Origin: Myxococcales bacterium
Lineage (GTDB): Bacteria > Myxococcota_A > Bradymonadia > UBA7976 > UBA1532
Length of the DNA stretch: 64,000 nt
Assembly (NCBI GenBank): GCA_020633435.1
Contig: JACKDP010000002.1
Span: forward strand, 567,788-631,787
Reading direction: 5' to 3'
The translations under genes and the position numbers were made by a program. This document shows positions 3,797 to 64,000 of the stretch, in pieces. Under the pieces are notes generated by a model that was given only the letters and a program-made list of their open reading frames with translations, made no database searches and was not told the DNA's origin. Numbering within the stretch: position 1 is the stretch's first letter; the number at the start of each line of letters is the position of its first letter.

Positions 3797-4674
3797 ACCG
3801 GGTCACGGCGGGCCTGGGCGCCACCGTCCTGGCCAAGCTGGAGTTCTTCAACCCGCTCTCCAGCGTCAAGGACCGCGCCGGCCTCGCCATGATCGAGGAG
3901 GCGGAGGCCCGCGGCGCCCTGACCCCGGCCACCGTGCTCATCGAGGCCACCAGCGGCAACACCGGCATCGCCCTGGCCTTCGCGGCGGCCGTGAAGGGCT
4001 ACCGCCTCATCCTGACCATGCCCGAGACCATGTCGGAGGAGCGGCGCGCCCTCCTCGCCGGCCTGGGCGCCGAGCTGGAGCTGACCCCCGCCGCCACCGG
4101 CATGCAGGGCGCCGTCGACCGCGCCCGCGAGCTGGCGCGCACGCTGCCCAACGCCTTGATCTTGCAGCAGTTTTCCAACCCGGCCGGCCCCGCGATGCAC
4201 GCCCGCACCACGGGCCCCGAGATCTGGGAAGACACCGGCGGCCGACTGGACGTCTTCGTGGCCGGGGTGGGCACCGGCGGGACGATCACCGGCGTCGGCC
4301 GGTTCCTGAAGGCGCAGAACCCCCGCATCCGCATCATCGCGGTCGAGCCCGCCACCTCCCCCGTCCTGGCGGGCGGTCGCCCCGGCGGCCACCAGATCCA
4401 GGGCATCGGCGCGGGCTTCGTCCCCCCCGTCCTCGACCGCTCCGTCGTCGACGAGTACGTCACGGTGACGGACGAGGAGGCCTTCGACCACGCGCGCACC
4501 CTCGCGCGCCTCGAGGGCATCCCTGCGGGCATCTCCTCGGGGGCGGCGTGCCGCGCGGCCCTCGAGGTCGCGTCCCGGCCGGCGTACGCGGGCGCCACCA
4601 TCGTGACGCTGTTCGCCTCCTCGGCCGAGCGCTACCTGTCCACCCGCCTCTACCGGGATCTCGTCCGCTCGTGA
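3736..4674 (+). CDS. cysK: cysteine synthase A (O-acetylserine sulfhydrylase), PLP-dependent
   Basis: Strong conservation: [50 protein letters not shown]. The ATG at 3736 gives the canonical [14 protein letters not shown]-terminus. Confidence 0.9.
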
Positions 4675-10555: not shown

Positions 10556-12849
10556 GACGGGCTCCGCCAGGCGCGGACGGCCTCCGGCAGCCGGGCCAGG
10601 AAGGCGCCCAGCTCACGCGGATCGCCGGGCAACGGCTCGCTGGCGCTGGCGAGCTCTTCGAGGGCGTCGAGGACGGCGCCCGCGCTGGTGATGGCCCCCT
10701 CGACCTCTGGGTCGCCCCAGGCCATCAGCTCACCGAGGGCCGACCGCAGCCGCGCGAGCTGGACGCGCAGGCCGCGCCGTTGGGCGATGACCCGAGCCTC
10801 CCTCGCCGGGAGCTCGTCGTCCAGCGACCTCGCCTCGGCGACGGCGCGGGCCAGCGCGACACCCCGCACCTGCGACGCGGTCTGGCGCGCCGCGTCGGCG
10901 ATGGCCGTGCGGAAGGGCCAGCCGGTTTGCTGCTCTCGGTTGTGGTGCAGCGGCAGTGTCGCTTCGACGACGGCGCTCGGCTCGTCGGCCCGCGCGAGGG
11001 CGGCCCAGACGGTGTCGGCGCGCCGGGTCGTGACCCCGTCGGCCGTGGCCAGGACGGGGGTCGGCCACCGGAACAGGGCGTCCAGATCCAGAAAGACGGT
11101 GTTGCCGCCTCGCCGCAGGGAGGGCCGAGGGGTCGACTCCGCCCCGTCCCAGACGAGCTGGCGGGTCAGCTGCTGCCCGTCGAGCAGTCGGGCCAGGTCG
11201 GCGATCAGCCCGAGCGCGACGGTCCGGACGGGTTCGCCGGCGCGATGGGGCGCGTAAGGCCAGACGTCGCCAGCCTCGGGCGCAATGGCCTCGGTGAGGT
11301 CATAGTAGGCGTCGAACATCGCCGACCGCTGGTCAGGCGGCAGCCAGCCAGCGTCGGGCCCCAGCTGCCGCATGCGCGCGATGTTGGCGGCGAGGTCGCC
11401 GAGTTGCCCGCCCAGGCAGTCGAGCCCGGGGACGGGCGGGTCGCCGGTGTACGTCCCCAGGATCACGCTGTGCTGAGGGAGCTCTGCCCAGAAGCGCGCC
11501 ACCCGGAAGAGCAGGTTGGTCTGCCGGCCGACCCGGCCCGCGGCGTCGCGCTGCTCGAAGGCCATGTCATCGTCGACCATCCAGACGACGATCGGGCGCT
11601 CCGCCGGATGGGGCAGGCCGGGGACGGGCTTTGCCAGATGGGCGCGGAGGGCCGCGACCTGGGCCTCGCGGGCGACGCCGATGGGGACGGGCAGGCGATC
11701 CCCGACGGGGGGGATGACGCCGTTCTCAGCCGCGCGGTCGAGGGCCGGGCGGAGGACGTCGAGCGGCACGCGGTGGACGACCACCGATCCGGCGGCCCCC
11801 ACCTGGACGTCGTCGGCCTGGGTCGCCGGCGCGTGGTTCTCGACGATCAACACCCCGACGTGGCCCGGATAGCGGGACGCGCTCACCTCCCGCGCGAGGG
11901 ACGCGAGGAGTCGCTGCACGGACGCCACCCGCCCGACCGTGGCCAGCGACACGAGCACGTCCGGCACCTCGTCGCGGCCAGGCGGCGCGACGCCCATGCT
12001 CTCGCTGACCTGCCCCCGGCCGAGCGCGAACCAGCGCCGCTCAAGCAGGAGCTCGGGCCGGTGCCGATGGAGGGCGTCCAGGGCGCGGCCGACCAGATCC
12101 GCCGGGAGGTTGAACTGTGTCGAGAGGAGCGCTTGAAGCCCCTCGCGACCCCCGACCCGGCGCGTCGTCCGCCCGACCCGGGTGTCGCGGGTGTAGACCG
12201 CGTCCCGCAGGGTGAGCACCGCGTCAGCGTGGATGCGCACAGCACGCAGACTCGCGAGGAACGGCCCGAAGCCAGGCTCCGAGTAGTGCGCGCGCACCAT
12301 GGGAGCGAAGTCCGCATAGGCGCAGAGACCGGGCTCGACGACATAGACGGTCTTCAGCGCTCCGTCGGGCAGGCGGCGGGTGAGCGTGGGGCCCGCCGGC
12401 GCCTGGGGATCGAAGGAGAAGTCCCAGCCCCGAAACGACTGGGTCTGTGCGGGACCGTCGAGGCGCCATGGGCGCAGGTAGGGGTGGCCGTTGCCGACGT
12501 CGCAGAGGAACCGATCGGCGCCCACCCGGGCGACGCAGACGAAGTGGTCGCCCGGCGCCCGGACGGTCGCCGCCGCGAGGTGGGCCTCGAACCCGAGGGC
12601 CTGGAGGAGCGCTGTGAACGGCGGCGTCGTGCGATCGCAGTTGCCGCCAACCCCAGCGATGGCCGCGTCGATGACCGTCGGGAGGGAGGGAAGCTCCCAG
12701 GGCTGGCCGTCGTTGGCCACCAGCAGCAGGTTGTGGAACGGCACGGCCATCAGGTGGGCCGCCTGCAAGCGCGCCAGGCCTGCCGCGTCAACGCTGACGT
12801 CGGGCCGGCCGAGCCGGGCCAGGTAGGCGTCGAGCCGCGCCGCGTTCAC
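10552..12849 (-). CDS. fusion protein: N-terminal arylamine N-acetyltransferase (NAT)-like domain + ~490-aa C-terminal domain with possible GT-A-like (DxD) features
   Basis: The GTG start at 12849 overlaps the M20 gene stop (GTGA). The N-terminus VNAARLDAYLARLGRPD...LARLQAAHLMAVPFHNLLL...GVGGNCDRTTPPFTALLQALGF resembles NAT-family N-termini (VPFENL, RGGYC-type Cys region). The C-terminal domain has GVLIVENH and VWMVDDDMAF motifs. The track ORF 10552..14220 upstream of 12849 is Arg-rich read-through antisense to nothing real. Confidence 0.55.
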   Translation of the reverse strand: MNAARLDAYLARLGRPDVSVDAAGLARLQAAHLMAVPFHNLLLVANDGQPWELPSLPTVIDAAIAGVGGNCDRTTPPFTALLQALGFEAHLAAATVRAPGDHFVCVARVGADRFLCDVGNGHPYLRPWRLDGPAQTQSFRGWDFSFDPQAPAGPTLTRRLPDGALKTVYVVEPGLCAYADFAPMVRAHYSEPGFGPFLASLRAVRIHADAVLTLRDAVYTRDTRVGRTTRRVGGREGLQALLSTQFNLPADLVGRALDALHRHRPELLLERRWFALGRGQVSESMGVAPPGRDEVPDVLVSLATVGRVASVQRLLASLAREVSASRYPGHVGVLIVENHAPATQADDVQVGAAGSVVVHRVPLDVLRPALDRAAENGVIPPVGDRLPVPIGVAREAQVAALRAHLAKPVPGLPHPAERPIVVWMVDDDMAFEQRDAAGRVGRQTNLLFRVARFWAELPQHSVILGTYTGDPPVPGLDCLGGQLGDLAANIARMRQLGPDAGWLPPDQRSAMFDAYYDLTEAIAPEAGDVWPYAPHRAGEPVRTVALGLIADLARLLDGQQLTRQLVWDGAESTPRPSLRRGGNTVFLDLDALFRWPTPVLATADGVTTRRADTVWAALARADEPSAVVEATLPLHHNREQQTGWPFRTAIADAARQTASQVRGVALARAVAEARSLDDELPAREARVIAQRRGLRVQLARLRSALGELMAWGDPEVEGAITSAGAVLDALEELASASEPLPGDPRELGAFLARLPEAVRAWRSPS

Positions 12850-30015: not shown

Positions 30016-31105
30016 ATGCGCGCCCTCGCCCTGCTCGCCCTCCTCAGCTCGCCGGCCTGGGCCGACCAGCTCCGCCTGACCGGCCTCCTGCGCGACTTCA
30101 CCGACGCCCACCCCGACTTCGAGGCCGAGCTCGGCTCGGATCGGGGCATCGTCGAGGACCGCCTCGGCGCCGATGGCAAGCCCGTCTACGCGCCGGCTGA
30201 CCGCAGCGACACCACCCATGGCCGGGCCGCCTTCGACCAGTGGTACCGCGACGTGCCGCAGGTCAACCAGCGCGCCCCCATCGTGCTCACCCTCGTCAAT
30301 TCTCCCGCAGATCCGCACATCTACACGTTCCGCGACCTGGACTTCTTCCCCATCGACGGCCAGCTCCTGGGCGACCAGGGGCGCGACCACAACTTCCACT
30401 TCACCGTCGAGCTGCACACCACCTTCGTCTACGAGGGCGGCGAGGTGCTGACGTTCGAGGGGGATGACGACCTCTGGGTGTTCGTGAACGGGCGGCGCGT
30501 CATCGACCTGGGCGGCGTGCACGGCGTCGAGACGGAGACGGCCGACTTCGACGCCCTCGCCGGCGCCATCGGGCTGCAGCGCGGCCAGACCTACCCGCTC
30601 GATCTCTTCTTCGCGGAGCGGCACACCAGCGAGTCCCACTTCACCCTCTCGACGACGGTGCGCTTCGAGGACGCGGGCGACCCGAACGACCCCGGCGGGG
30701 GCGGCGCCGGGGGCGGGGGGGCTGGCGGGGCCGGCGGGGCCGGCGCCGGGGGCGGCGCGGGCGAGCCCGGTGGCGGCCCCCGCGAGGATCCCTGCCTGGG
30801 GGATCCCACCTGCGTCATCCCATGCAGCGATGGCGAGTGCCCCTACGAGCGCGTCTGCCGCGACGAGCGCTGCGTGGATCCCTGCGAGGGGGTGGCCTGC
30901 GGCGCCGGCGAGACCTGCCAGCGCGGCGCCTGCGTGGCGGGGCCTGCGGGGCGGACGCCGGCTCTGCGCCGCCTCGGCCGCGGCGGACGCCGGGTCGGGC
31001 GCCGACGGCGACGGCGGCGGCTGTACGCAGGCCCCCGCCCCCCCGGCCGGCCTGGCCGCCCTCGCGCTCCTCCTCGCCCTGCGGCGTCGGCGGCGCCCCG
31101 CTTGA
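30016..31105 (+). CDS. fibro-slime (PA14-like) domain secreted protein with Gly-rich linker, Cys-rich module and MYXO-CTERM-like tail; body and tail are in different frames (frameshift/indel near 30935-30990)
   Basis: Signal peptide MRALALLALLSSPAWA. Fibro-slime-like motifs: LTGLLRDFTDAHPDFE, DGKPVY, FDQWYRD, FFPIDGQLLGD, DDLWVFVNGRRVIDLGGVHG, LDLFFAERHTSESHFTLSTT. The tail ...GDGGGCTQAPAPPAGLAALALLLALRRRRRPA* is in the +1 frame (track ORF 30770..31105), whereas the body frame reads through to 31224 with Arg-rich nonsense. Confidence 0.55.
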
Positions 31106-31160
31106 CACCGCCGCGGGGGCCGTCTACTCCCTCACCCCACCCTGCGTGGAGATCCCCTGC

Positions 31161-31862
31161 ATGCCTCAGAGCCTCGACGTGCTGCTCTTCGCCGCCGTCT
31201 CCGTCGCCGGCCTCCACACCCTGATCGGCATCGACCACACGCTGCCCTTCGTCGCCCTCGGCCGCGCCCGGGGCTGGTCGCTGCGCCGCATCCTGGCCGT
31301 CACCGCCCTGTGCGGCCTGGGCCATGTGCTCTCTTCGGTGGTCCTGGGCGTGGTGGGCATCGGCCTGGGCACCGCCCTGGAGCAGCTCTCCTGGATCGAA
31401 TCGAGCCGCGGCGAGCTGGCCGCCTGGCTGCTCATCGCCTTCGGCCTGGCCTACGCCGGCGGGGCCCTCCTGCGCCGCGCCGGCCGCCAGCCCGGCCGGC
31501 ACGAGCTGCACAGCCACGGCGACGCCCTGGTGCACGCCCACCCCCACGCGCCAGGCCATGGCCACGCCCGCAGCGCGGCCTCCGTCACCGTCTGGAGCCT
31601 CTTCATCATCTTCGTGCTGGGTCCCTGCGAGCCGCTCATCCCGCTGCTGATGGCCCCGGCCGTGGAGCATGGGGCCGGCGCCGTCGTGCTCGTGGCGTCG
31701 GTCTTCGGCGCCGTCACCATCGGCACCATGCTCGTGGTCGTGACGCTGCTGCACCACGGCCTCAAGCTCGCCGCCCTCCAGGGCCTCGAGCGGCACGCCC
31801 ACGTCCTCGCCGGCCTGGCCATCGCGGCCTCGGGCGTCGCCATCCAGAGCCTCGGGATCTAG
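31161..31862 (+). CDS. NicO/RcnA-like nickel/cobalt efflux membrane protein with His-rich loop
   Basis: Multiple TM segments and a central HELHSHGDALVHAHPHAPGHGHARS His-rich loop. VLGPCEPLIPLL resembles the RcnA GGLIPCPAA motif. The N-terminal LIGIDHTLPF resembles HGLEPGHS. Confidence 0.5.
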   Translation: MPQSLDVLLFAAVSVAGLHTLIGIDHTLPFVALGRARGWSLRRILAVTALCGLGHVLSSVVLGVVGIGLGTALEQLSWIESSRGELAAWLLIAFGLAYAGGALLRRAGRQPGRHELHSHGDALVHAHPHAPGHGHARSAASVTVWSLFIIFVLGPCEPLIPLLMAPAVEHGAGAVVLVASVFGAVTIGTMLVVVTLLHHGLKLAALQGLERHAHVLAGLAIAASGVAIQSLGI

Positions 31863-32897
31863 GTGCGCGTCCTCGTCGTCGGCGGCGCGGGCTACTACGG
31901 CCGGCGGGTGCTCGCCGCCCTCGCCCAGGTGCCCGGCGTCGAGGCCCACGCGGCCGGGCGGCGCGGCCCCGTCATCGTGGATCTGGCTGATTCTACGACG
32001 TTTTCTGCGTTCTCCGGCTTCGACGCCGTGGTCGGCTGCCACGACAGCGTTGGGGTGGCCAGCGACGCCGCGGTGGCCTGGTGCGTGGCGCAGGGCCTCG
32101 TCTGGCTCGACATGGGCGCCGACGCCCAGAGCGTGGAGCGGCTGCTGGCCCTTGAGCCGGCGGGGCCGGGCCTCGCGCTCGTCGGCGTGGGCCTCTTCCC
32201 GGGCCTGAGCACGGCGCTGGCCGTCGAGGCCGCCAGCGCGACCGGGCGCCCCGACCGCGTCGAGATCGGCGTGCGCCTCGCCGCGCTCTCGGGGGCGGGC
32301 CGGGGCCTCTGCGATCTGATGGTGGCGCTGCTGGCCCGGCCGTCGGTCTGGACGCTGGGGGGCCGGCGCCTCACGGGGCCGGCGCTCGGCCCGGGCCGCT
32401 ACGTCGACTTCCTGGGCGCCGGGCCCGCCTGGGCGCGCCGGGTGGGGCTGGCGGACGCCCCCCTGCTGCCCGCCGCCACCGGGGCCGGCGACGCCGCCAT
32501 CCGGCTGGCGCTGCGGCCGCGCTGGCTGGGCCCCCTGCTCGTGCTGGCGGCGGGCATGGTGCGGCTCGCCGGCCCGCTGCGGCCGGCCCTGCTCCGCGTC
32601 ATCGGCTGGCAGCTGCGCCTGGTCCGCGGCTGGCTGCTGAAGCGCCGCCCCGCGACGGTCGAGATCACCGCCGTCGCCGAGCCCGGCGGCGCCACCGCGC
32701 GCCTCGCCTGCCCGGACGGCCAGCGCGCCACCGCGGCCGCCGTGGCGGCCACCATCGCGTTGCTGCAGGCCGAGAAGCGCCGCCCCGCCGGGCTGCACCC
32801 CCTCACGGACGTACTGCCCCCCGACGCGCTGCTGCGCGCGACCCAGGCCCTCGACGCCAGCGTCGTCGTGGAGCTGCCGTCAGTCGGCGGGCGCTGA
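31863..32897 (+). CDS. NAD(P)-binding Rossmann protein, saccharopine dehydrogenase-like
   Basis: The GTG start immediately follows the previous stop. VRVLVVGGAGYYGRRV glycine-rich dinucleotide loop. Confidence 0.5.
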   Translation: MRVLVVGGAGYYGRRVLAALAQVPGVEAHAAGRRGPVIVDLADSTTFSAFSGFDAVVGCHDSVGVASDAAVAWCVAQGLVWLDMGADAQSVERLLALEPAGPGLALVGVGLFPGLSTALAVEAASATGRPDRVEIGVRLAALSGAGRGLCDLMVALLARPSVWTLGGRRLTGPALGPGRYVDFLGAGPAWARRVGLADAPLLPAATGAGDAAIRLALRPRWLGPLLVLAAGMVRLAGPLRPALLRVIGWQLRLVRGWLLKRRPATVEITAVAEPGGATARLACPDGQRATAAAVAATIALLQAEKRRPAGLHPLTDVLPPDALLRATQALDASVVVELPSVGGR

Positions 32898-33677
32898 GGC
32901 CGCCCACGTCACGGGCGCCGGCAGGCCCTCGCGGAACACCACCATCTCGCCAGGCGCCATGCGGTGCCAGACCTCCTGCCGGGTGAGCGGCTGGGTGGCC
33001 ACGATGGTCACGATGTCGTTGGGCGTCGTCTCCTGCTTGAAGTCGACGCTGACCTCGGTGTCGAGCAGCCGCGCCACGCCGAACGGGGCGCGCCGCGTGA
33101 TCCAGCAGAGCTTCGTGGTGCAGTACGCGAACAGGTGGGTCGCGTCGCTCAGCAGCATGTTGAAGGTGCCGTGGCCCCGCAGCTCCTCGGCCAGGCCATA
33201 GACGAAGCGGTGCAGGCTCGCGGGCCGCCGCGGCGGCTTCGGGAAGCGCGTGCGGATGGCGTCGAGCAGCCAGCAGAAGGCGTGCTCCGAGTCGGTGGTG
33301 CCCACCGGCTGGTAGAAGCCGAGGGGCCGGTCCTTCACGCCGGGGAGCTTGCCGTTGTGGGCGAAGCACCAGTGGCGGCCCCAGAGCTCCCGCACGAACG
33401 GGTGGGTGTTGGCCAGGCAGACGCGGCCGTGGGTGGCCTGGCGCACATGGCTGACCACCACGCAGCTCTTGATGGGGTAGTCGCGCACGAAGGCCGCGAA
33501 GGCCGACTCCGCGCTGGGGGCCGCCTCGTGGAAGGCCCGGCAGGCCCGCCCATCATAGAAGGCGATGCCCCAGCCGTCGGTGTGCGGACCCGTCTTGCCG
33601 CCCCGGACGCTCAGGCCCGTGAAGCTGAAGCAGATGTCCGTCGGAGTGTTGGCGCTCATGCCGAGGAGCTCGCACAT
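32880..33677 (-). CDS. class II glutamine amidotransferase (YafJ-type, N-terminal Cys nucleophile)
   Basis: MCELLGMSAN... N-terminal nucleophile Cys2 pattern, HVRQATHG, HNG motifs. Confidence 0.75.
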   Translation of the reverse strand: MCELLGMSANTPTDICFSFTGLSVRGGKTGPHTDGWGIAFYDGRACRAFHEAAPSAESAFAAFVRDYPIKSCVVVSHVRQATHGRVCLANTHPFVRELWGRHWCFAHNGKLPGVKDRPLGFYQPVGTTDSEHAFCWLLDAIRTRFPKPPRRPASLHRFVYGLAEELRGHGTFNMLLSDATHLFAYCTTKLCWITRRAPFGVARLLDTEVSVDFKQETTPNDIVTIVATQPLTRQEVWHRMAPGEMVVFREGLPAPVTWAASAPAD

Positions 33678-33770
33678 GGCCCCAGTGTACTCCGGGCGGC
33701 CGCGCGGCCCAAGGCCCTTGGCGGGCCGGTCGCGCTGGCGTGGATCCGCCGGTTTCTGCAGTGCTTTCAG

Positions 33771-35320
33771 CTACCTGGGCGGCCCGTCGCCCCGCAGCAG
33801 CGCCAGCAGCAGGGCCGCCGTCTCGCGGTCCGCGAGGAGCGCCCGGCAGCGCGCGCGCAGCTCGGCCTCGTCCTCGATCTCTTCGCCCGTGACCCGGCCG
33901 ACGTGGCGCGCGACCCGCAGCAGATCGGCCAGGGGCAGCGACTCGGTGGCGTCGACGCGCACATGCCGCGACGTCCACGCGGCCGCGGGCGGGGCCTCGG
34001 GCGTCCGCTCCGGCAGCCGCGCGCCCCAGCGGCCCGCGACCCGCGGCCGCACCCGCAGGGGCCGCCCCTCCCGGGTGGTCGAGGCGTCGACGGGCATCCA
34101 GCGCGGCCCCTGGGCCGTCCCCAGCAGCGCCATCGCCCACAGATGATCCGGCTCGTCCACCTGCCCCCGGTCGAAGATCCACCCCGTCGCCACCGCCGCC
34201 GGCACGCCCGCGCGGCGCAGCAGCTCCACGGCCAGCACGTTGAGCTCGTAGCAGACGCCGGCGCCCAGGTGCCGGGCGTCCCGGCCGGCGTGCAGCGCCG
34301 CGAGCTGGGCGTTCTGCCGCCCGCGGCTCAGGCGCCGGAGCCAGCCGGCCAGGCGCGGATCCTCGAAGCGCGCCGGGTCATAGCGGTAGCTGGCGCGGAT
34401 GAAGTCGCGGATGGCGATGGCCCGCTCCAGGGGCGCGATGCCGCTGACGCGATCCACCAGCGCGTGGCACTCGGCGGGCAGCTCGTTGTCGGGGGCCGTC
34501 GGGCGCAGGAGCGTGGCCGGGGCGTCGACGACGTAGGCCGGGCCGAACTCCGGGGCCTGGCCGAGGGCGATCTCGCAGCGCACGTCGGCGTCGCGCGAGG
34601 CGCTGAGGAGCGGCAGGCCGCCCGGGGTGCGGATGACGAGCGCCGCGGGCTGCGCGTCGGCGGAGAGCAGGCGGCCGTGGAGCGGCACCGGCAGGACGGA
34701 CTCGCCCGCGGGCAGCCGGCCCGCCAGGCTCACCCGGTGGCGCGACTCCCCCGCCGCGGCCGACCAGGCCGGATCGATGGCCTCGGCCGTCCAGTGCTGC
34801 GTGCGCGGATCGAAGCGGTCGGCGATGAGCGCCGGGGCGTAGAGCCAGGGCGACGGGAGCTGGCGCGGGGCCGTAGCGAACCCATACGCCGCCGGGCGAC
34901 CCCGGTCCTCCAGCCAGGCCCGCCCGTCGTCGAGCTGCGGGCCCACGTCGCCGCGGGGGCGGAAGAAGCGGTCGTGGCTGGCCTGGAAGGGCCGGCTCGC
35001 GTCGCCCCCCGTGGCGGGGCTGCGGCGCGAAAGGCCGCCGGGCGCGACGGGCGTGGGGGCTGGCGGCGGCGTGGGCTGCGCGGGCGCCTCCGGCGGCGGC
35101 GCCTCGCTCCGGCTCTGGCGGCGCCTCCTCCCCGCCCAGCCACTTGCGGAACCGCGCCAGCAGCCAGGGGCCGAGACGGCCTCCTCGGCGGCCGCCGGGG
35201 TCGCTGGCTCTGGCGGGGCGGCGGCGGGGCCGCGGGGGCGTGGGCGCGGGGTCGGGGCGCTGCCGCCGCGGGGCCGGGCGCGGGCGCTGGGCGCGGCGCG
35301 TCGAGCAGCAGCCGCATGGC
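33771..35320 (-). CDS. C-terminal transglutaminase-like cysteine-protease-fold segment of the giant protein; out of frame with the upstream body
   Basis: From the track ORF 33771..39656, only the last ~500 codons look real: ...RDARHLGAGVCYELNVLAVELLRRAGVPAAVATGWIF...DHLWAMAL is a transglutaminase-core (G.C....L.....LR..G.PAR...G) signature. The upstream part of that ORF is G/R/P nonsense antisense-frame material. Confidence 0.5.
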
Positions 35321-38300
35321 CGGCAGGCGCACGCAGGCCAGCAGATCGGCCACCAGGGCCACCTGCTCCGGCGTGGCCTTGCCGCTGACGAGGCGGTCCC
35401 GGCAGAGGGCGTCTGCGACGGTCGCCAGGTCCGGATCGCCGCGCACGACCAGCGTGTCGGCCACGACGGCGGCCTCGACCGGCCAGCGGACGGCCTCCCC
35501 GAGCAGCCGCCCCTGGCGCTCGATGCGGTCGGCCAGGTGCGCCGTCGGCACGCGCCCGAAGTCGGCCCTCCAGCGGGCCGGCCAGCGGCGCAGCGCGTCG
35601 CCGAGGCCCCAGAGGGCGGCCACGCTCGCGCCCAGCTCGCCGGCCAGCGGCGCGATGCCGGTGGCGGTCGGCGCCCCCCGATCCTCGAACAACGCCCCCG
35701 CCCGGGGCACGCCGGCCTGGGCCAGGACCGCCTGCAGGGCGTCGGGATCGCTGTCCCCCGCGTGCACCGCCAGCAGATCCACGCCCTCGGCGCGCGCGGC
35801 GTGGACCAGGCTCATCGGCGCCGGCCACACCAGCCGCGGATCCGACGTCCAGCAGAGCGCCAGGCGCCCGCCGGCGTCGGCCACCACCACACCGCGGGCC
35901 GGCGCGGCCTCGCCCGCTCGCACCCAGGCGCGGGGGATGACGTCCGCCAGCTCGGGCTCGGGGCCGAGCAGCGCGTCGCCCTGGGCCATGAACGCCGTCG
36001 CCAGCTCGTCGAGCACGTCGGCGTAGTGGCGTGGCGCCGGGCCGGGGGGGATGCGCAGGGCCGCCACCAGCCGCGGCAGCGTCCGCCCCGCGCTGAAGCC
36101 GCCCCGCCGGCGCCCCAGCTCCCCCGGGGGCAGGTCGCGGATGAGCGTGCGGGCCGGGTGGCGGCTGTCGTCGTCGGCCAGGAACCAGGGCCCGTCGCCC
36201 AGGCCGTCCCGCGCCGCCTCGGCCGTCAGCCGGCGCGCCTCGATCTGATCCTCCAGCCAGCGCAGCACCACCTCGTCCAGGGCGCCGCCCGGCGGCACGC
36301 GGCCGAGGACGTCGGCCAGGCGGGCGTCGTCGGCGCCCCGGCAGCCCAGCCGGCGCCACACCGCCTCGGGCACGTCGGCCCGCAGCGCCACGGCCGGGTA
36401 GAGGCCGCCCGCGTCGGCCCCCAGCAGCGCCTGCACCGCGGGCGTGGGCCAGTAGAGGCGCGACGGTGAGCGCAGCCCGCCCTGGGCGTCGGGCAGCCAC
36501 GTCCGATCCCGCAGGCTGAGCGCCTCGATCAGCCGGGGGGCCTCGACGGCCCGGTCCAGCACGTAGCGCGCGCAGGCGAGCCGCTGCTCGCGGCCCTCCC
36601 CGGGGGGGTGGTCCAGCAGGGCCGTGAGGGCGGCGTCGTCCAGGTCGGCGTCGGCCCCGGCGCCGCGGATCAGCGCCCGCGTGGCCGCGTCGTAGCGCGG
36701 GTGCAGGATGGGGGGCGGCGCCGGCAGGAAGCCCGCCAGCGTGGTGGCCAGGTCGTCCCGGGCCGGCACCAGCACGGCCTTCGGGCGGTGGAAGGCCCCG
36801 TCGAGGGCCTGCACCCGGATGCGCCGGCCCAGCTTGAACCGCTGCGCCTGCTCGGCGGCGTGGGCCGGGCGGTCCGCCTCGACCCGCAGCGTCCGGGCCA
36901 GGAACGCCAGCAGCGTGGCCTGCCGCTCCCCGTCCCCGTCCGCCATCTGCAGGCCCTCCAGCACATGGTCCACCAGGGTGTGCAGCCGCGTTTTCTCCAA
37001 AGAATACAGGTCCTTGAAGAGGGCGCGCAGCGCCTCGGGCAGCTCGGCGGTCGGGTTCCACGAGAGGTCCAGATCGGGCAGGCCAGGCTCGAAGAGCAGC
37101 GCGTTGGCGGGGCGCAGCAGCCCGTCGGGGGTGGGCAGCACGCAGGCGCGCCCCAGGGCCGCGCGGGCCGCCTCGTCGGCGCCGATGACCTCGGCCCGGG
37201 CGAGCACGGCGCGGTACAAGGCGTGCCGGGCCTCGGGATCCGCGAAGGTGGGGTGCGTCTCCGCGGGCACCGGGGACGTCGCGTGCTCGGCCAGGGCCTC
37301 CAGCCAGCTGCGCACCGGCAGGCGCGGCGCGAGGGCCGGCGCGACGCCCCGGGCCACGGCGGCCCACGTCGGGTCGGCCAGCCGCACCACCAGCGGGGTG
37401 CGCGCCACGGTGGCCAGCTCGTCGAACGTCGCCTCGAAGCGGGCGCCACGGCACAGGCAGCCCTGGGCGTCCACGGTCAGCGGCAGGCGCGCTGGATCGA
37501 GGCCGGGCTCCTCCATGGCGACGACGAGCAGGCGCCCCACCTGGCCGGGCGTCTGCAGCCACGGCGGCTGCTCGGCCAGGGGCTCCCCGGGCCGGGCCTC
37601 CTCGGCCAGCTTCTCCAGCAGCAGCGACACCGGCGAGCGGAACCGCAGCACGCTGGCCAGGGCGTCGGCGTCGGCCTCCGCCCGGTGCTCGAGCAGCCCC
37701 GCCGGCGGCACCTCCACCACGCCCAGGAGCGCGGATCCTCGCAGCGCGGACGGCCGCACGAGGGCGGACGCCCGGGCGTGGCCGCCATCCTGGTGGGGCC
37801 ACACCGCCAGGTCGGCGAGGGCGGAATCCCAGGCGTCGACGAGGTGCACCAGCGTGTCGCGGACGGTGTCGAGCGCCACCGGGCGGGCGTCGGCCGTGAC
37901 CACCAGCGCCAGATCCGCCGGCCCCGCCGGCCGCAGCCGCAGCGCCTCCAGCAGCGGGGCCAGCGCGGCCTCCGCCGAGGGCTCCAGGCGCCGCCGCCCG
38001 GTGTGCTCCAGCGCGGCGGCCAGGGCGGCCGGGACGCGGTGCGCCCCGCCCCGATCCGGGGCGTCCCAGTGCCCGAGGGGGGCACGCTCGCCATCCGTCG
38101 TCGGGTACAGCGGCAGCGTCGTCAGCGGCGCGAGGCGCGACGGCGGCAGGCTCTGCCCGGCGGCGGCGAGGGCCTCGAAGAGCGCGTCGATGGGCACCTC
38201 GGCCACGTCGTCGGCCTCGGCGCTCGCCAGATCCTGCACCATGCGGCCCAGATCCGGCGTCCGCAGCGCCTCCTCCAGGCCCAGGGCCGTGGCGGCGCGG

Positions 38301-41236
38301 ATGGCCTCGGCGCCCGCGAGGGGCCAGGCCGCCAGCGCCCGGTACACGGCCGCCACGCGCGGATCGGCGGCCGGCGGTCGCAGGGCCGCGAGGGGCCGCA
38401 GCGCCCCGTCGCGGGCGGGCCAGATGGGGGCCTCGGCCAGCGCCTGCCGGGTCGGGCCGCTGATGCGCTCCGCGCGCTCCGCCACGAACGCGAGGGCCGC
38501 GCCGACGTCGCCGATGGCCTGGCCCGCCAGCTCGGGGGGCGGGCGCCCGGCCAGGTGCCGCGCCAGGTGGTCGGCCGTGAGCGCCACGATGGGCAGGCGC
38601 CCCACATGCGGCGCGCCCCGCGCCAGATCGCGGCGCAGCCAGGCCACCCCGGGCAGCAGGCCCCGCAGGCCATCTTCGGCGGGCACGAGGGCGCGGTCCG
38701 GCCCGAGGAGCGGGCGACGCTCGCCGGTGTCCGTGGGGAACACGGCGGCCGCCGCCAGCCGGTCGAGCTGGCGGCCCGACAGCTCGCCCTGGGTCTCGGC
38801 CAGGACGGCGTGCAGGGCGTCGAGCGCCGCGTCGTCGATGGGCAGGCCGTCGGCCGCGTAGAGCGCCAGCACCGCCGGCAGGTCGAGGACGGTCACCCCG
38901 AGGCGGCGCAGCAGATCCGCCTGGCTGGCCTGGATGCCGGCGTCGACGAGGGGCGGCCGCACCTCCAGGCCCCGCAGCCAGCCGCCGAGGGGGCCGGGCG
39001 CCGGCAGGAAGACGGCCTGGGGCCCCCGCACCGACCGCAGCCGCCCCCGCTCGTCGGGCACCAGCGGGGCGTCCTTGACCTGCTCGAGCTGGGCCGCGGG
39101 CCGCCCCGCCAGCCACCGCAGCACCCGACCAGCGCCGGCGCGGCTGACGATGGCCGCGGCGTCGGCCGCCAGATCGGCCAGCACGTCCTCGGCCGTGAGG
39201 CTGCCGACGCGCAGGCGCGCCCACAGGGGCCCCAGGTGCAGATCGGCGTCCAGTTCCGGGGCCAGCAGGGCCCGCCCCGGCGCGGCCAGCGCCCGCAACT
39301 CGGCGTCCGCCCTCAGGATTTCGGACGGCGCATGCAGCACGCCCGCGGCGTCGGGCAGCACCGCCAGCCCCCGCAGGGCGTCCACGGGCCAGCGCTCCCG
39401 GGCCAGGAACCGCAGGATGACGGGCATCGCGCCGGGCAGCCAGGCGGCCCCCTGGGCGGCGGTGAGGAGTGCGTCGAGGTCGGCGGGCGCCAGCGCCACC
39501 GCCCCCAGGTCCCGCGCCACCTCGGCCAGGCCCCCGGGCAGCGGCGCCACGGGGCGTCGCCCGGGCGCGGGCGCCAGCACGGCGGCGAGCGCGGCGTCGG
39601 GGACGAGCAGGGCGCCCGTCGGCGTGACCGGCTGGCCCTGGGCGTCCTGCAGCCACGGCACCTGGCGGACGGCCTCGCGAAACCCGGTCGCGACGTGCTC
39701 GAACGGCGCGGTGACGGCCTGCCGCGGCGCGACGGCCATCAGCGGGCGGGCGTCCAGGCCGGCCGCGACGCGGCGCTGGACGAGGCCGCCCAGCAGCGCC
39801 CCGGCCCGCGCCAGCGCGGCGTGGTTGGGGGCGTCGTCGCCGTCGATGCGCTCCCGATCCACGGGCACGGCGAAGCGGGCGTGGATCAAGAAGTCGTGGC
39901 CGCTCGGCTGCCGCGTCGGCAGGAACGCGAAGACGGAGGGCTCCCCGGCGGGCCAGCGCGCGGGCTGGCCTGCCGCGTCCAGGGCCACGGCCACCAGCAC
40001 CTCGTCCGCCGGGGCCCGGGGGCGCTCGGCGTGGTGGGCGGCCACCAGGAACCCCCGCCGCACCACCGGCCCGCCCTGGTCGTCGACGAGCTCCACGCGG
40101 TCGTCGCCGGTGCCCGGGCGCCGGGTCAGGCGGCGACGACCCGCGGCGTCCTCGATCTCGATGGTCTGCACGCTGCGCAGGGTGAGCAGGACGTGGGCCG
40201 GCAGCGCCCGGGCGCGGCGGGCGAGCGCCGCCACCCCCCGCGCCTCGTCGGCCGGATCGCGCAGCGGCAGGACGAGCGTCGTGCCCACGCCGCCGGGGCG
40301 GCGCTCCAGGGGCCGGGGCAGCGACACGTCGGCGATCTCGAAGGCGAAGACGTCGGAGTAGACGCGGGGCCGCTCGCAGACGGCGTAGACGGACTTGAAC
40401 CCCACGCCGAACAGGCCGATGTGGCCGGCCACCTTCGTGGTCTGGCCGATGGAGAGGACCCCCACCACGTCGCGCACGTCGAAGGGGGCCCCGTCGTGCC
40501 GGATCTCGACGGCGTCATCGGTGAACGTGACCCGCCAGGACCGGGCCCCGGCGTCGTCGGCGTTCTGCAGCAGCTCGGCCAGAAAGTGTCCGGGTTCCGT
40601 ATAGATACGCTGGGACAGCAGCTCCTCGGCCCGGGCCAGCGACAGGGAGCGGGGCTGGCTCGCGAGGACGGCGAGGACGCGGTCCCCGAAGGCCGCCCGG
40701 CGGGCGCGGAGGGCGTCGTCATCGGCCAGCGCGGCGATCCGGGCCCCGGGCAGCAGCAGCAGATCCTGGTCCGTCCCCTCCCCGGCGGCGACGCGCGCGC
40801 CGGCGGCGGCCTGGAGGTCGGCCAGGGTGGCGGGGGCGTGGCGCCCGAGCCAGCGCAGGATGACGCAGCTCTCGGCCAGGCGCTCGACGGGCTGGGCCAG
40901 GAGCGTGCGGGCCAGGAGCGCGGCGAGGGCGGCCTGGGCCTCGGCGTCGCCGGCCTGGCTGCCCGGGCCGAGGGCGCGCGCCAGCCCGGCGGCCGGGAGC
41001 GTGGCGAGGGCGTCGGCCAGGGCGCCTCGCACCGTCGGCTCCAGCACCGCCCCCGAGGCCAGCAGGCCCGCCATCAGGCGCGCGAAGGGCTCGAAGTCCG
41101 GGCCCTGGGCCGTCAGCGCCGTGAGCGTGGCGAGGCCCTGACCCGCGGCCACGGCGGCGTCGATGATCGCCGCCTGCGCGGCGAAGGGGGCCCGGGCGGC
41201 GGCGGCCCAGGCCTCGGCGGTCGGTGCGTGGGCCAT
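35321..41236 (-). CDS. giant (~1,970-aa in this frame) protein with N-terminal sacsin/NOV-type GHKL (Hsp90-like) ATPase domain and a long Ala/Leu/Arg-rich helical region; probably continuous with the transglutaminase-like segment
   Basis: Start taken at ATG 41236 (MAHAPTAEAW...). SQRIYTEPGHFLAELLQNADDAGARSWRVTF...IRHDGAPFDVRDVVGVLSIGQTTK...GLFGVGFKSVYAV is the Bergerat-fold N-box/G-box pattern seen in sacsin SRR/NOV-type GHKL ATPases. Coding-like composition runs to a Pro-rich linker at ~35300-35400, where the frame degenerates. The track ORF continues to 34730 as Arg-rich nonsense. Confidence 0.6.
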
Positions 41237-60747: not shown

Positions 60748-62019
60748 ATGGACCGCCGCCTGTTCCTGCGCCGCCTGCTGGCGGCCAGCTCCGCGCTCTA
60801 CCTCGGCTGCGGCGAGGGCGGCCCCGGCGATCACGGGGGGGCCGACGCCGGCCCCGACGCCGAGGGGCTCGCGGGCTTCGACGACGCCCAGGGCTTCGAC
60901 GACGCCCAGGGCTTCGCCGACGCGGGCCCCCTCCCCGACGCCGGCCTGGGCTGCCCCGGCCTCTTCGACGACGCCTCGTTCGAGGCCGTCGTGCCGTTCA
61001 CCGGCGAGCGCGACCTGCAGTTCCACACGCTGGTGAACCCCGGCTGGGACGGCCGCCTCTACACCGACCTCGCGCTGCTCGACGCCGACGACCTCATCAC
61101 GCCCACCGCCTGCTTCTACGTGCGCACCCGCTTCCCCGACCGCCTGGACCTGGCCGCTCGCCTGCCCTGGCGCATCACGGTCGATGGCCTCGTCACCGCC
61201 CCGACGAGCCTCGCCCTCGACGACCTGCTCCCCCTCGCGCGCCCCATGGGCACCCACGTCATGGAGTGCAGCGGCAACAGCCGCGGCGCCCACTTCGGCC
61301 TGATGAGCGCGGCGAGCTTCACCGGCGTCCCCCTGCGCGACGTCCTCGACGCCGTGCCCCGCCGCCCTGAAGCCACCTTCGTCGAGCTGACCGGCTTCGA
61401 CGATCACAGCGTGCCCTCGGCCAACAACCACTCCACCCCGGGCGCCTCGTGGATCTTCCGCCTGGACCAGCTCGACCGCGCCTTCCTGGCCACCGGCATG
61501 AACGGCGAGCCCCTGCCCCTCGACCACGGCTTCCCGGTGCGCCTGCTGGTGCCCGGCTGGTACGGGTGCACCTGCATCAAGTGGCTGGAACGCTTGACGT
61601 TTCACGACGACGCCGTGCCCGCGTCGTCCCAGATGATCGAGTTCGCGAGCCGGACGCACCAGGACGGGACGCCCGCCCTCGCCCGCGACTTCCGGCCGGC
61701 GGCGATGCACCAGGCCGCCCTGCCGGTGCGGGTGGAGCGGTGGCGGACGGCCAGCGGCCCCGTCTTCCGGGTGGTCGGGGTGCTCTGGGGCGGCAGCCGG
61801 CCGACGGACGCGCTGACCATCCGGTTCGGGGCCGACGAGCCCTTCGTGCCCGTGGCGACCTGCCCGCCGATGGTCGGGAACGAGACGTGGACGCTCTTCG
61901 AGCACCGCTGGGCGCCGGCGGCCCCGGGGGACTACGTGATCCGCTGCGCCATCGACGATCCCGGCGTGCCGACGCAGCGGCTCGACGCGGGCTACTACGA
62001 CCGGACGCTCACCGTCTGA
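60748..62019 (+). CDS. Tat-exported lipoprotein, molybdopterin-dependent oxidoreductase (sulfite oxidase family)
   Basis: MDRRLFLRRLLAASSALYLGCG is a twin-arginine signal plus lipobox. The Moco-binding motifs HVMECSGNSRG and FPVRLLVPGWYGCTCIKWLERL are present. Confidence 0.75.
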   Translation: MDRRLFLRRLLAASSALYLGCGEGGPGDHGGADAGPDAEGLAGFDDAQGFDDAQGFADAGPLPDAGLGCPGLFDDASFEAVVPFTGERDLQFHTLVNPGWDGRLYTDLALLDADDLITPTACFYVRTRFPDRLDLAARLPWRITVDGLVTAPTSLALDDLLPLARPMGTHVMECSGNSRGAHFGLMSAASFTGVPLRDVLDAVPRRPEATFVELTGFDDHSVPSANNHSTPGASWIFRLDQLDRAFLATGMNGEPLPLDHGFPVRLLVPGWYGCTCIKWLERLTFHDDAVPASSQMIEFASRTHQDGTPALARDFRPAAMHQAALPVRVERWRTASGPVFRVVGVLWGGSRPTDALTIRFGADEPFVPVATCPPMVGNETWTLFEHRWAPAAPGDYVIRCAIDDPGVPTQRLDAGYYDRTLTV

Positions 62020-63467
62020 TCCGGCGGCGGCGCAGGGCGAGGCCCAGCAGCAGCCCCAGCACGCCCCCCCCGCCGCCCGGCCCCTGCGTGCAGCCATCGC
62101 CGCCGCTGGCGCCGCCACCAGCGCCGCGTCGGCCGGCGCGGCGTCGGAGGCCAGCGCCGCGGCGTCCGCCGCCGCCAGGCGCGCCATGTCCGCCCTGGCG
62201 GCGTCCTCGAGGGCCGCGTCCGCCGGGCGGCGTCCGGGCGGGCGGCGTCGACGACGGCCGCGTCGACGACCGCCGCGTCCGGCGGCCCCGCGTCCGGCGG
62301 CACCGGCGGCCGCGGGGGCTCCCCGCCCATGGGCTCGGGCGCGCAGGGCGCCTCGACGCAGGTGCTCTCGAACGTGAAGACCAGCGTGTCGGCCAGCACC
62401 TCGCCCGTCGTGCGCTGGATGCCCGGGCGCAGCTCCACGGTGTAGGTGGTCGAAGGCGCCAGGGCGACCTCGGGGATGATCCGCACGAGGCGCGTGGAGT
62501 CGTCGGCGCCGCCGCTCCAGCGGGTGTGGCGGACGCGGGTGGGCACGGGCTGACCATCCGGGTCGAGCAGGACGACCGTGTCGGCGTTCAGGCTGCCCAC
62601 CACCACGCCCGCGCCGAAGACGATGGTCGCCCAGGCATCCACGATCTCGGGGCCCAGGGCGCGCAGCCGCCGAGGCGCCACCGGCCAGCCATGGGTCGCG
62701 ATGGCCGCCATGGGGTAGCGGTCGTGCAGCCGGTCCCAGATGGCCTGCAGGTACGCGGCCGTGGGCGGGATCTCGCTGGCCAGGCTGCCGGGCACGGCCG
62801 GATCGACGTAGTGCTCCGCCGTCCAGGCCAGGAAGGGCCGGTGCTGGGCCTCCAGGCCCGGCGCGATGGCGGCGAAGCCATCGATGACCAGCAGCTTCAC
62901 CCGGTTCATGCCCGCGCGGATCGTGTCCTGGTCGACGACGTGGCCATGGGCCTCCAGGAAGATCCCCGGCAGGTCGTCGAAGGGGGCGTACAGGGGCGGC
63001 TTGTACTGCAACCACCCGTCCGCAAACAGGAAAGAGTCGGTGCCCGGGTCGGCGCGATCCTGCCCTTCGTGGTCGTGCAGCTCGACCTGGTAGAGGAAGA
63101 GCGAGTCGAAGAGCTCGTCCTGCAGGCCGTGGCTGGCGAGGCCCATGAGGAAGGCCACGTGCTTGCGGGCCTCCAGCGTCTCGAAGGGCGGGCCCAGGTG
63201 CCCCTGGATCCACGCCAGGTGCGCCCCGACGTAGGGCTCCCAGTGCGCCAGCTCCCCATACGGATCGCCGATCGCGTAGCCGGAGTCGGGGAAGGCGGCC
63301 CCGATGAGCGCGGCGTCGCGGACCTCCGGCTCGGCGAAGAAGTCGGCCAGCTCCCCCGGGGGCAGGGCCTCGATGGCCCAGCCGGTGACGTGGACGTGCC
63401 CGTTGATGCCATGGGCGAGCGCGGCGGGGGCCGCGCAGAGGGCCAGGAGCGTCGTGAGGGTGCGCAT
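62009..63467 (-). CDS. secreted zinc-dependent phospholipase C / P1-nuclease-like protein with DAA-repeat linker and out-of-frame MYXO-CTERM-like tail
   Basis: The ATG at 63467 gives MRTLTTLLALCAAPAALAHGINGHVHVTGWAIEAL. FLMGLASHGLQDELFDSLF resembles the PLC YLG.S.HY.GD motif. The body frame degenerates after ...DAAVVDAAVVDAARPDAA. The tail ...GGDGCTQGPGGGGGVLGLLLGLALRRRRIRR* is in another frame (track ORF 62009..62557). Confidence 0.5.
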
Positions 63468-63645
63468 GGCGCCAGGGTAGCACGCCGACCACCGAGCGAG
63501 CTTGCGTCCGGAGGCTGGGCGGGGAAATGATGGCCCACCGACCCGGAGGCCGCCCCTGCCCCTCGCCGACCAGCTCATCTGCCCTGTCTGCCGGAGCACC
63601 TGGCCCGCGGGCAAGCGCGTCTGCGCCCGGGACAACGCCCCCCTC

Positions 63646-64000
63646 ATGCCCAACCTGGTGGGCCGCCGCATCGCCGGTCGGCTCGTCACCGACGTCCTGG
63701 GCATGGGCGCGACGTCGGCGGTCTACCGCGTCCGCCACGTCGCCCTGGGTCGCGAAGAGGTCCTGCGCATCCTGCGCGACGAGATCGAGCAGGACCGCCT
63801 CAACCACGTCCTGCCCATCGTCGCCCAGCTCCGCGATCCGCACGTCGTCCGCCTGCACGACCTGGTGCCCCCCGAGAGCGGCCGCGCCATCGAGCTGGAC
63901 CACCCGATGCTGCTCACCGAGCTCGCTGACGGTCGCTCCCTGGCCGTCCGCCCGCCCGGCACGCAGCTCAGCCCCACGGCCGCGGCCCGCATCATCCACC
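63646..64000 (+). CDS. Ser/Thr protein kinase-like protein, N-terminal fragment (continues past window end); possible upstream zinc-ribbon with alternative TTG start at 63502
   Basis: Frame-1 translation from 63481 gives ...LICPVCRSTWPAGKRVCARDNAPLMPNLVGRRIAGRLVTDVLGMGATSAVYRVRHVALGREEVLRIL..., a glycine-rich loop-like G.G..S.VY. It is not in the ORF track because there is no stop within the window. Confidence 0.4.
   Translation, partial: MPNLVGRRIAGRLVTDVLGMGATSAVYRVRHVALGREEVLRILRDEIEQDRLNHVLPIVAQLRDPHVVRLHDLVPPESGRAIELDHPMLLTELADGRSLAVRPPGTQLSPTAAARIIH

Follow-up and report, generated by a model that had tools for sequence, protein, structure and literature searches.

Single-base assembly errors as the probable cause of a frame break in a giant GHKL–transglutaminase gene of a Myxococcales bacterium

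How does one very large protein come to be written in three reading frames? The question is raised by a gene on the minus strand of a 64,000-nucleotide (nt) stretch of a Myxococcales bacterium genome (GenBank assembly GCA_020633435.1, contig JACKDP010000002.1, positions 567,788 to 631,787; hereafter, the window), in which a GHKL-type body, a Pro-rich linker and a C-terminal transglutaminase-like (TGase) module follow one another out of frame. A sequence-only reading of this DNA had treated the three parts as one gene, had noted a frame discontinuity at 35050–35420 and had named as possible causes an indel error in GC-rich homopolymeric DNA, a genuine frameshift producing a pseudogene, or programmed frameshifting. 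We consider it very probable that the break consists of single-base assembly errors in the GC-rich linker of one giant GHKL–TGase gene. The single open reading frame (ORF) of the relatives, the place and nature of the downstream indel and a like pattern in another gene of the window were all observed; that the window, rather than the strain contigs with which it was compared, is in error is what we infer.

With a GC content of 68–82% (median 74%), the window contains long ORFs in all six frames, so that lists of ORFs are uninformative on their own. GC content at third codon positions (GC3) is more telling: on the minus strand it stays at 0.95–0.99 with third positions on phase 2 from ~41200 to ~35250, and again at 0.95–0.99 with third positions on phase 0 from ~35100 to 33771, where the gene closes with a stop codon (33771–33773). 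A six-state Viterbi segmentation of the whole window places the frame switch at ~35203. The body frame first meets a stop at 34730 (34730–34732), 473 nt past the end of its coding signal and, in its out-of-frame tail, overlapping the TGase frame. This is the largest such overshoot in the window; the next two (~200 nt each, near 31000 and 62100) are the two other suspected frameshift sites described below, and in nearly all remaining genes the coding signal ends within a few tens of bases of the stop. Orthologues of 2402–2707 amino acids (aa) match the window in tblastn as two high-scoring segment pairs (HSPs), 41143..35300 (frame −1) and ~35030..33786 (frame −3), and because these end and start at 35300 and ~35030, the damage is limited to ~270 nt of linker. 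The discontinuity first described is thus confirmed, on the minus strand. The body frame does degenerate there, as had been described for ~35400, although recognisable body homology runs slightly further, to the residues MRLLLD at 35317–35300. As given, the window has no uninterrupted single ORF for this gene; adding or removing two to three bases yields a stop-free ORF of 2487–2488 aa from ATG 41236, the presumed start, where the first residues read AMAHAPT.

In related genomes the same parts share one frame. We mapped both window parts on to the DNA behind the protein matches and on to 73 further loci from GTDB representative genomes. At 57 of the 63 informative loci a single frame without stop or gap runs from the C-terminal third of the body through the linker into the TGase module; the TGase frame is open 5–7.3 kb upstream, in ORFs of 2402–2707 aa. 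A stop/start junction or two separately initiated genes, the finding that would have spoken against one gene, occurred at none of the 63 loci, and the comparison of orthologues across the linker that the sequence-only reading had proposed therefore upholds its one-gene view. Of the six exceptions, four are scaffolds with N gaps and two are long-read-style contigs (L001 and L065) with frame changes along the whole gene; apart from N-gap artefacts, none of the six has a shift in the linker. The four scaffolds (L002–L005) are Illumina assemblies with 100-N gaps exactly in the repetitive linker, and their flanks overlap and read through; with the gap sitting in the linker, they were set aside as uninformative for frame continuity. 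In the gene calls of L002–L004 the giant gene is missing and spurious antisense ORFs stand in its place.

The closest relative, L008 (JAWKQS010000026.1, metagenome-assembled genome (MAG) ABC2.71), is collinear with the window over 12 kb at 81% nucleotide identity and shares 93% of amino acids in the TGase module; its linker reads ...LLLDARRPPPP...PAEEAAPPPESPVAQGLLARFRRWLGGAEEPERP...RPFQARHDRFFRPQ... in one frame. This locus has single-base frame changes of its own (at ~3859, 4185–4260, 6050 and 10993–11004), some in the N-terminal third and others close to where the TGase module ends. The window is intact at these places, and different assemblies are therefore damaged at different places. The architecture extends beyond the phylum: six loci in MAGs labelled Candidatus Obscuribacterales (L075–L080) have it as a single ORF, with TGase modules 33–36% identical, and their presence outside Myxococcota reflects either horizontal transfer or a wider distribution of the family.

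Protein records give a different impression of the family. A search with the TGase part returned matches of 229–677 aa only, from Myxococcota MAGs, which suggested a stand-alone TGase gene; this candidate was rejected, as the DNA of these loci shows contig ends, N gaps and long-read frameshifts, and judged from the locus sequences the short database proteins are truncated calls. No full-length member of the family occurs in a large protein collection, yet intact ORFs of 2400–2700 aa are encoded in dozens of genomes, and searches by protein alone therefore misrepresent the GHKL–TGase architecture. Within 0.8 kb of the TGase module on its upstream side there are eight contig ends and four N gaps, and the 6.8 kb beyond contain 16 contig ends, so that contig ends per kb in the linker (those of L006, L007, L019, L021, L028, L045, L047 and L051) are about four-fold those in the rest of the gene, an enrichment that is indicative only, some loci being replicates of one organism. 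These counts suggest that, in many genomes, the linker is difficult to sequence or to assemble.

Within this linker lies a short conserved element that the window carries in yet another frame. The family motif is G-phi-phi-x-R-phi-(R/K)-x-(W/F)-(L/F)-x-G-(D/E)(D/E); the window copy, WLLARFRKWLGGEE, is read only in the third minus-strand frame, and the L008 copy reads GLLARFRRWLGGAEE. The strict pattern locates the motif in the TGase frame in ~37 orthologous loci, and looser forms could be recognised by eye in most of the others, a part of which was inspected; the longer protein matches to the TGase part also carry it upstream of the TGase module (for example, GLLGRFRRWLRGDEE). In the window, codon usage favours the motif frame over 35180–35121. 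The third-frame peptide noted in the sequence-only reading was therefore read correctly (35166–35125), and by comparison of the family sequences it is a coding, family-wide linker motif and not a chance translation. Across L001–L080 it sits ~60–120 codons upstream of the TGase module in a fast-evolving, charged or Pro-rich surrounding, and the Obscuribacterales members have a diverged form, GFLDFLFGRS. A 24-mer of the motif found no match among JGI metagenome contigs. In the AlphaFold2 model of an orthologue (P0019), the linker is disordered, with a predicted local distance difference test (pLDDT) score below 50, and the motif forms a short isolated helix at a pLDDT of ~57–60.

With the motif counted as coding, at least two shifts flank it, one or more within ~35300–35167 and one at 35109/35110. 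The sequence-only reading had recognised neither this plurality of indels nor the coding nature of the peptide. Frameshift-aware dynamic programming (DP) of the L008 protein against the window gave two +1 shifts, at ~35176 and ~35106, under every penalty tried. Viterbi decoding by codon usage kept the motif frame over 35174–35122, put the last shift at ~35121 and preferred the TGase frame at 35191–35175, which amounts to three shifts (−1, −1, +1); the net change is −1 on either account. The TGase frame at 35191–35175 is also favoured by the DNA CCGCCGAGGAGGC, which aligns with in-frame P-A-E-E-A in L008. On one reading, that with three shifts, the body would pass into the TGase frame within 35300–35210 and then into the motif frame at the CCCC/GG run at 35170–35165, where the family-typical ...PG-LLARF would result if one base were missing in CCTGG^CTG. 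Aligning window DNA with that of L008 was tried for the upstream indel and abandoned: the linker is too diverged and of too low complexity there, and gap placement is arbitrary. Downstream, DP and a blastn alignment against L008 agree on a shift at 35106–35118.

This downstream shift could be resolved to the base in a near-identical strain. Strain contigs were found through exact matches to window proteins in public assemblies, and the neighbouring GATase_4 protein (32880–33677) is carried by four short contigs, among them L082 (Logan assembly, SRR12358675). L082 is 99.19% identical to the window over 35121..32640, with a single indel, at 35109/35110, where the window has an extra G (GAGCCGGAGCGAGG against GAGCCG-AGCGAGG in L082). 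Dropping this G fuses the motif frame to the TGase frame (..EEAPPEPSEAPPPEAP..), and the L082 sequence passes directly from the end of the motif frame, ..PPEP, into the TGase frame as ..SEAPPPEAPARPTPPPAPTPVAPGGLS...RFFRPRGDV. The downstream shift is thus a single-nucleotide insertion peculiar to the window. In the linker segment shared with L082 (35021–35121), the first 100 nt contain five single-nucleotide polymorphisms (SNPs), against a divergence of ~0.6% over the rest of the 2.5 kb, which marks the linker as a hot spot of substitution at strain level.

Two other genes of the window are broken in a like manner. At 62009–63704 (minus strand), the body of a secreted protein (weak Big_5 match), an Asp/Ala-rich middle and a MYXO-CTERM-like tail (GGDGCTQGPGGGGGVLGLLLGLALRRRRIRR, then a stop) lie in three frames. 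An 8.3-kb Logan contig (L085, SRR15882951), found via the adjacent 423-aa protein, is 99.73% identical over 3698 nt and differs from the window by exactly two indels. At both, the window lacks 1 nt of a homopolymer: at 62112 (CCC to CC) and at 62225 (GGGG to GGG). A single 486-aa ORF, closing with the MYXO-CTERM-like tag, spans the gene in L085. The NCBIfam match of this tail is weak (E = 0.97), and its probable identity rests on the GC...LLLGLALRRRR-stop pattern together with the intact ORF in L085. At 30016–31224 (plus strand), a fibro-slime/PA14 protein (TIGR02148, 2.4e-29; PF07691) loses its coding signal at ~30960–31027, and a MYXO-CTERM tag (GCTQAPAPPAGLAALALLLALRRRRRPA, then a stop) is found at 31019–31105 in the +1 frame (TIGR03382, 16.6 bits against a cut-off of 15.85). 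The break at ~31000 is probably another single-base indel, in a stretch of 85% GC. No strain contig covering it was found: exact look-up of the proteins at 31161–31862 and 31863–32897 showed neither on record in other strains. In the ~7 kb compared with strain contigs there are three indels, all in DNA of 81–88% GC, and none elsewhere; the linker, ~31000 and ~62000–62220 are among the most GC-rich 250-nt segments of the window.

The chief competitor of assembly error, which we consider unlikely, is that the frameshifts are authentic, recent and strain-specific, so that the gene is either a fresh pseudogene or truncated at 34730 to its GHKL part plus a meaningless Arg/Pro tail, and the TGase module goes untranslated. 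The indels are, after all, present in the sequence as given, the linker evolves fast (five SNPs in its first 100 nt against ~0.6% elsewhere in the comparison with L082) and its C4–C5 runs could slip in vivo. Several of our own observations also weigh against assembly error: the downstream indel lies in a GG/G dinucleotide and not in a long homopolymer; L082 begins at 35121, which leaves the upstream shift or shifts outside near-identical coverage; DP and Viterbi differ on the position of the upstream shifts and on whether there are one or two; and L082 and L085 come from other strains (0.3–0.8% divergent), so that real polymorphism is conceivable and the indels could be strain differences. Yet authentic frameshifts would have to comprise at least two independent indels within ~200 nt, between flanks with a ratio of non-synonymous to synonymous substitution rates (dN/dS) of 0.09–0.21, and would further demand single or double frameshifts in two more genes within 64 kb, again in the most GC-rich stretches. 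As the lesions are limited to those stretches, a technical bias fits better than mutation. The sister strain L082, moreover, has an intact junction, and the 420 codons of the TGase frame contain neither stops nor signs of decay. Measured against L008, dN/dS is 0.09 in the TGase module and 0.21 in the C-terminal part of the body; the former value indicates strong purifying selection on the module and, together with the intact invariant triad, a gene that was functional until very recently or still is. No decay was seen downstream of the lesion (no stops, triad intact), a test that is insensitive to very recent events. Were the indels real, the C-run-rich linker might be a hypermutable, contingency-like tract that toggles the motif and the TGase effector strain by strain, and slippage in like tracts upstream of the MYXO-CTERM tags would likewise toggle the surface anchoring of secreted proteins; to this we give very little credence.

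Programmed recoding would make the break a device, with ribosomal frameshifting or transcriptional slippage yielding a GHKL-only product and the full-length fusion in a set ratio. The linker is stop-free in all three frames, so that shifted ribosomes could continue, and the GC-rich sequence downstream may form structure; we nonetheless regard this explanation, which the sequence-only reading had also entertained, as highly improbable. The break is not conserved (57 of the 63 loci, L008 included, are in frame, and L082 is in frame at the downstream junction), at least two successive shifts would be required, and the like pattern in an unrelated gene (62009–63704) is explained by 1-nt deletions. 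The stretch from 35320 to 35080 lacks an X_XXY_YYZ heptamer and any A or T run of three or more, and it has no zero-frame stop codon that could serve a +1 shifty site. Equally remote, or slightly more so, is an arrangement of two overlapping genes, one for the GHKL part with its stop at 34730 and one for the TGase module with a start of its own, for which the TGase matches of 229–677 aa in protein databases speak when taken at face value. These matches are the truncated calls described above, over DNA that shows continuous giant ORFs, and two genes would need an out-of-frame overlap of 375 nt. The TGase frame is also start-less over 35800–34947: as the sequence-only reading had it, the segment lacks a usable internal start, and the sole start codon of this frame in 35800–34900, GTG 34946, falls within and would cut the conserved RFFRPRGDV block, with no Shine–Dalgarno-like sequence found upstream. 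The motif frame has no start codon in the same interval.

We therefore return to assembly error, towards which the single-ORF orthologues, the junction in L082 and the lesions in two other genes all lean. Under this explanation, the assembly would have erred in its most GC-rich, low-complexity stretches, leaving single-base indels that are not mutations. At least two of them (the extra G at 35109/35110 and one or more within 35300–35167) would put body, motif and TGase module into three frames, and the organism itself would produce a full-length fusion of ~2487 aa, composed of the GHKL body, a disordered Pro-rich linker of ~100 residues with its helix, and the TGase module (Table 1). As a biological signal, the break would thus be without importance, being best explained by base-calling or assembly indels. 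Its practical meaning is wider. In these 64 kb the contig appears to carry five or more single-base indels, every one of them in DNA of more than 80% GC, and calls of pseudogenes, split genes or recoding from such stretches of this assembly deserve distrust; the giant gene should be annotated as one protein of ~2487 aa. The family to which it belongs may be described as a conserved giant GHKL–TGase fusion whose N-terminal third is TmtA-like and whose disordered linker carries an invariant amphipathic helix. Because the linker breaks assemblies and gene calls, the database record of the family is fragmentary, and as it is found in protein databases almost only as fragments of 230–680 aa, its study needs DNA.

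Table 1. Features of the giant GHKL–TGase gene in the window
Feature	Position	Strand	Basis
Giant gene, ~2487–2488 aa when repaired	33771..41236	−	GC3, Viterbi, orthologues aligning end to end, stop-free after repair
GHKL body, phase 2 frame, intact	35300..41236	−	Single HSP with orthologues; hidden Markov model (HMM) matches
Bergerat-fold N-box ELLQNADD of sacsin-type GHKL ATP-binding domain	40553..40576	−	Translation; inside SACS and NF047352 matches
Pro/Ala/Arg/Glu-rich linker, ~100 codons, 84–87% GC; holds every frame change	35000..35299	−	
Interval of upstream shift(s), with eight C4–C5 runs	35167..35299	−	
Conserved linker motif WLLARFRKWLGGEE, third minus frame (phase 1) only	35125..35166	−	
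Downstream shift, extra G	35109..35110	−	L082 comparison
C-terminal TGase module, phase 0 frame	33771..35105	−	GC3, Pfam, orthologue alignment
Predicted catalytic triad: Cys 34251–34253 (GVCYELN), His 34143–34145 (DEPDHLW), Asp 34086–34088 (PVDAST)	34086..34253	−	
Arg/Pro-rich tail of body frame, out of frame, non-coding	34730..35105	−	Translation; GC3 and codon usage gone from ~35300

For the domain architecture of the repaired protein, searches of the literature on sacsin with transglutaminase and on Tiamat/TmtA found no paper describing a GHKL–TGase fusion. At the N terminus of the body, the SACS profile PF25794 scores 40.5 bits (cut-off 32.8) and NF047352 scores 76.7 (cut-off 50), and the N-box fits the Bergerat pattern ExxxNAxD. 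By sequence, the only solved relatives of the body are the sacsin SIRPT structures 5v44–5v47, a weak match. Further along, residues 210–725 of the body match the PADLOC profile of TmtA (E = 3.2e-39, profile positions 69–611 of 1486); the neighbouring genes are not obviously defence genes. The TGase module runs from a conserved N-terminal block, RFFRPRGDV (34970–34944), through a beta-rich domain and the TGase core to a helical tail. With 41.7 bits, Transglut_core (PF01841) clears its cut-off of 23 at ~34083–34436, and the residues C257, H293 and D312, invariant in a 22-sequence TGase alignment (A1), are present in the window. A sequence search of the PDB with the TGase module gave no match. 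The AlphaFold2 model of P0019 (mean pLDDT 73, with 85–95 in the C-terminal module) finds its best Foldseek match in the periplasmic domain of Pseudomonas aeruginosa TgpA (6g49, E = 4.7e-10, TM score 0.64 on the target), followed by a putative cysteine protease (3isr). We speculate that the GHKL domain may be an ATP-driven switch that governs the tethered module, the latter acting as a cysteine protease or as a cross-linking effector, perhaps in a Tiamat-like manner; the conserved amphipathic helix might then serve as a docking or autoinhibitory element.

The protein may also be set beside known systems. Its likeness to sacsin SIRPT and Hsp90-like GHKL domains lies in HMM scores above curated cut-offs and in the N-box ELLQNADD; the match, however, covers ~90 residues, and in the bacterial protein the domain occurs once, at the N terminus of a 2000-aa body. 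The protein lacks the UBL, DnaJ and HEPN domains of sacsin and ends in a TGase module. Tiamat, an anti-phage system reportedly named by Millman et al. in 2022, offers in TmtA another very large single polypeptide with an N-terminal GHKL domain, yet nothing in the TmtA models corresponds to the last 1700 residues, the linker motif or the TGase module. With TGase-like cysteine proteases of the TgpA type, the module shares the PF01841 score, the invariant Cys-His-Asp and the best fold match, but identity is ~14%, and the TgpA domain is periplasmic in a membrane protein, whereas the present one is C-terminal in a cytoplasmic-looking giant GHKL protein. As for the break itself, it resembles programmed frameshift sites (for example, the +1 site of prfB and the −1 sites of dnaX and IS elements) in that two parts of one protein lie in different frames across a stop-free junction, and departs from them in that orthologues do not share it, that a slippery sequence is lacking and that two or more shifts follow one another. 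Pipelines such as NCBI's PGAP annotate single-base indel errors as 'frameshifted' pseudogenes, and it is with the known indel errors of draft genomes and MAGs in GC-rich or homopolymeric DNA that the comparison is closest. The window differs from these in that its error is deduced and not seen in reads, and in that one indel is an insertion in a GG dinucleotide; it agrees with them in the one-base indels in C or G runs of low-complexity DNA of 81–88% GC, in the several genes hit on one contig and intact in near-identical strains and orthologues, and in the intact flanking ORFs under purifying selection.

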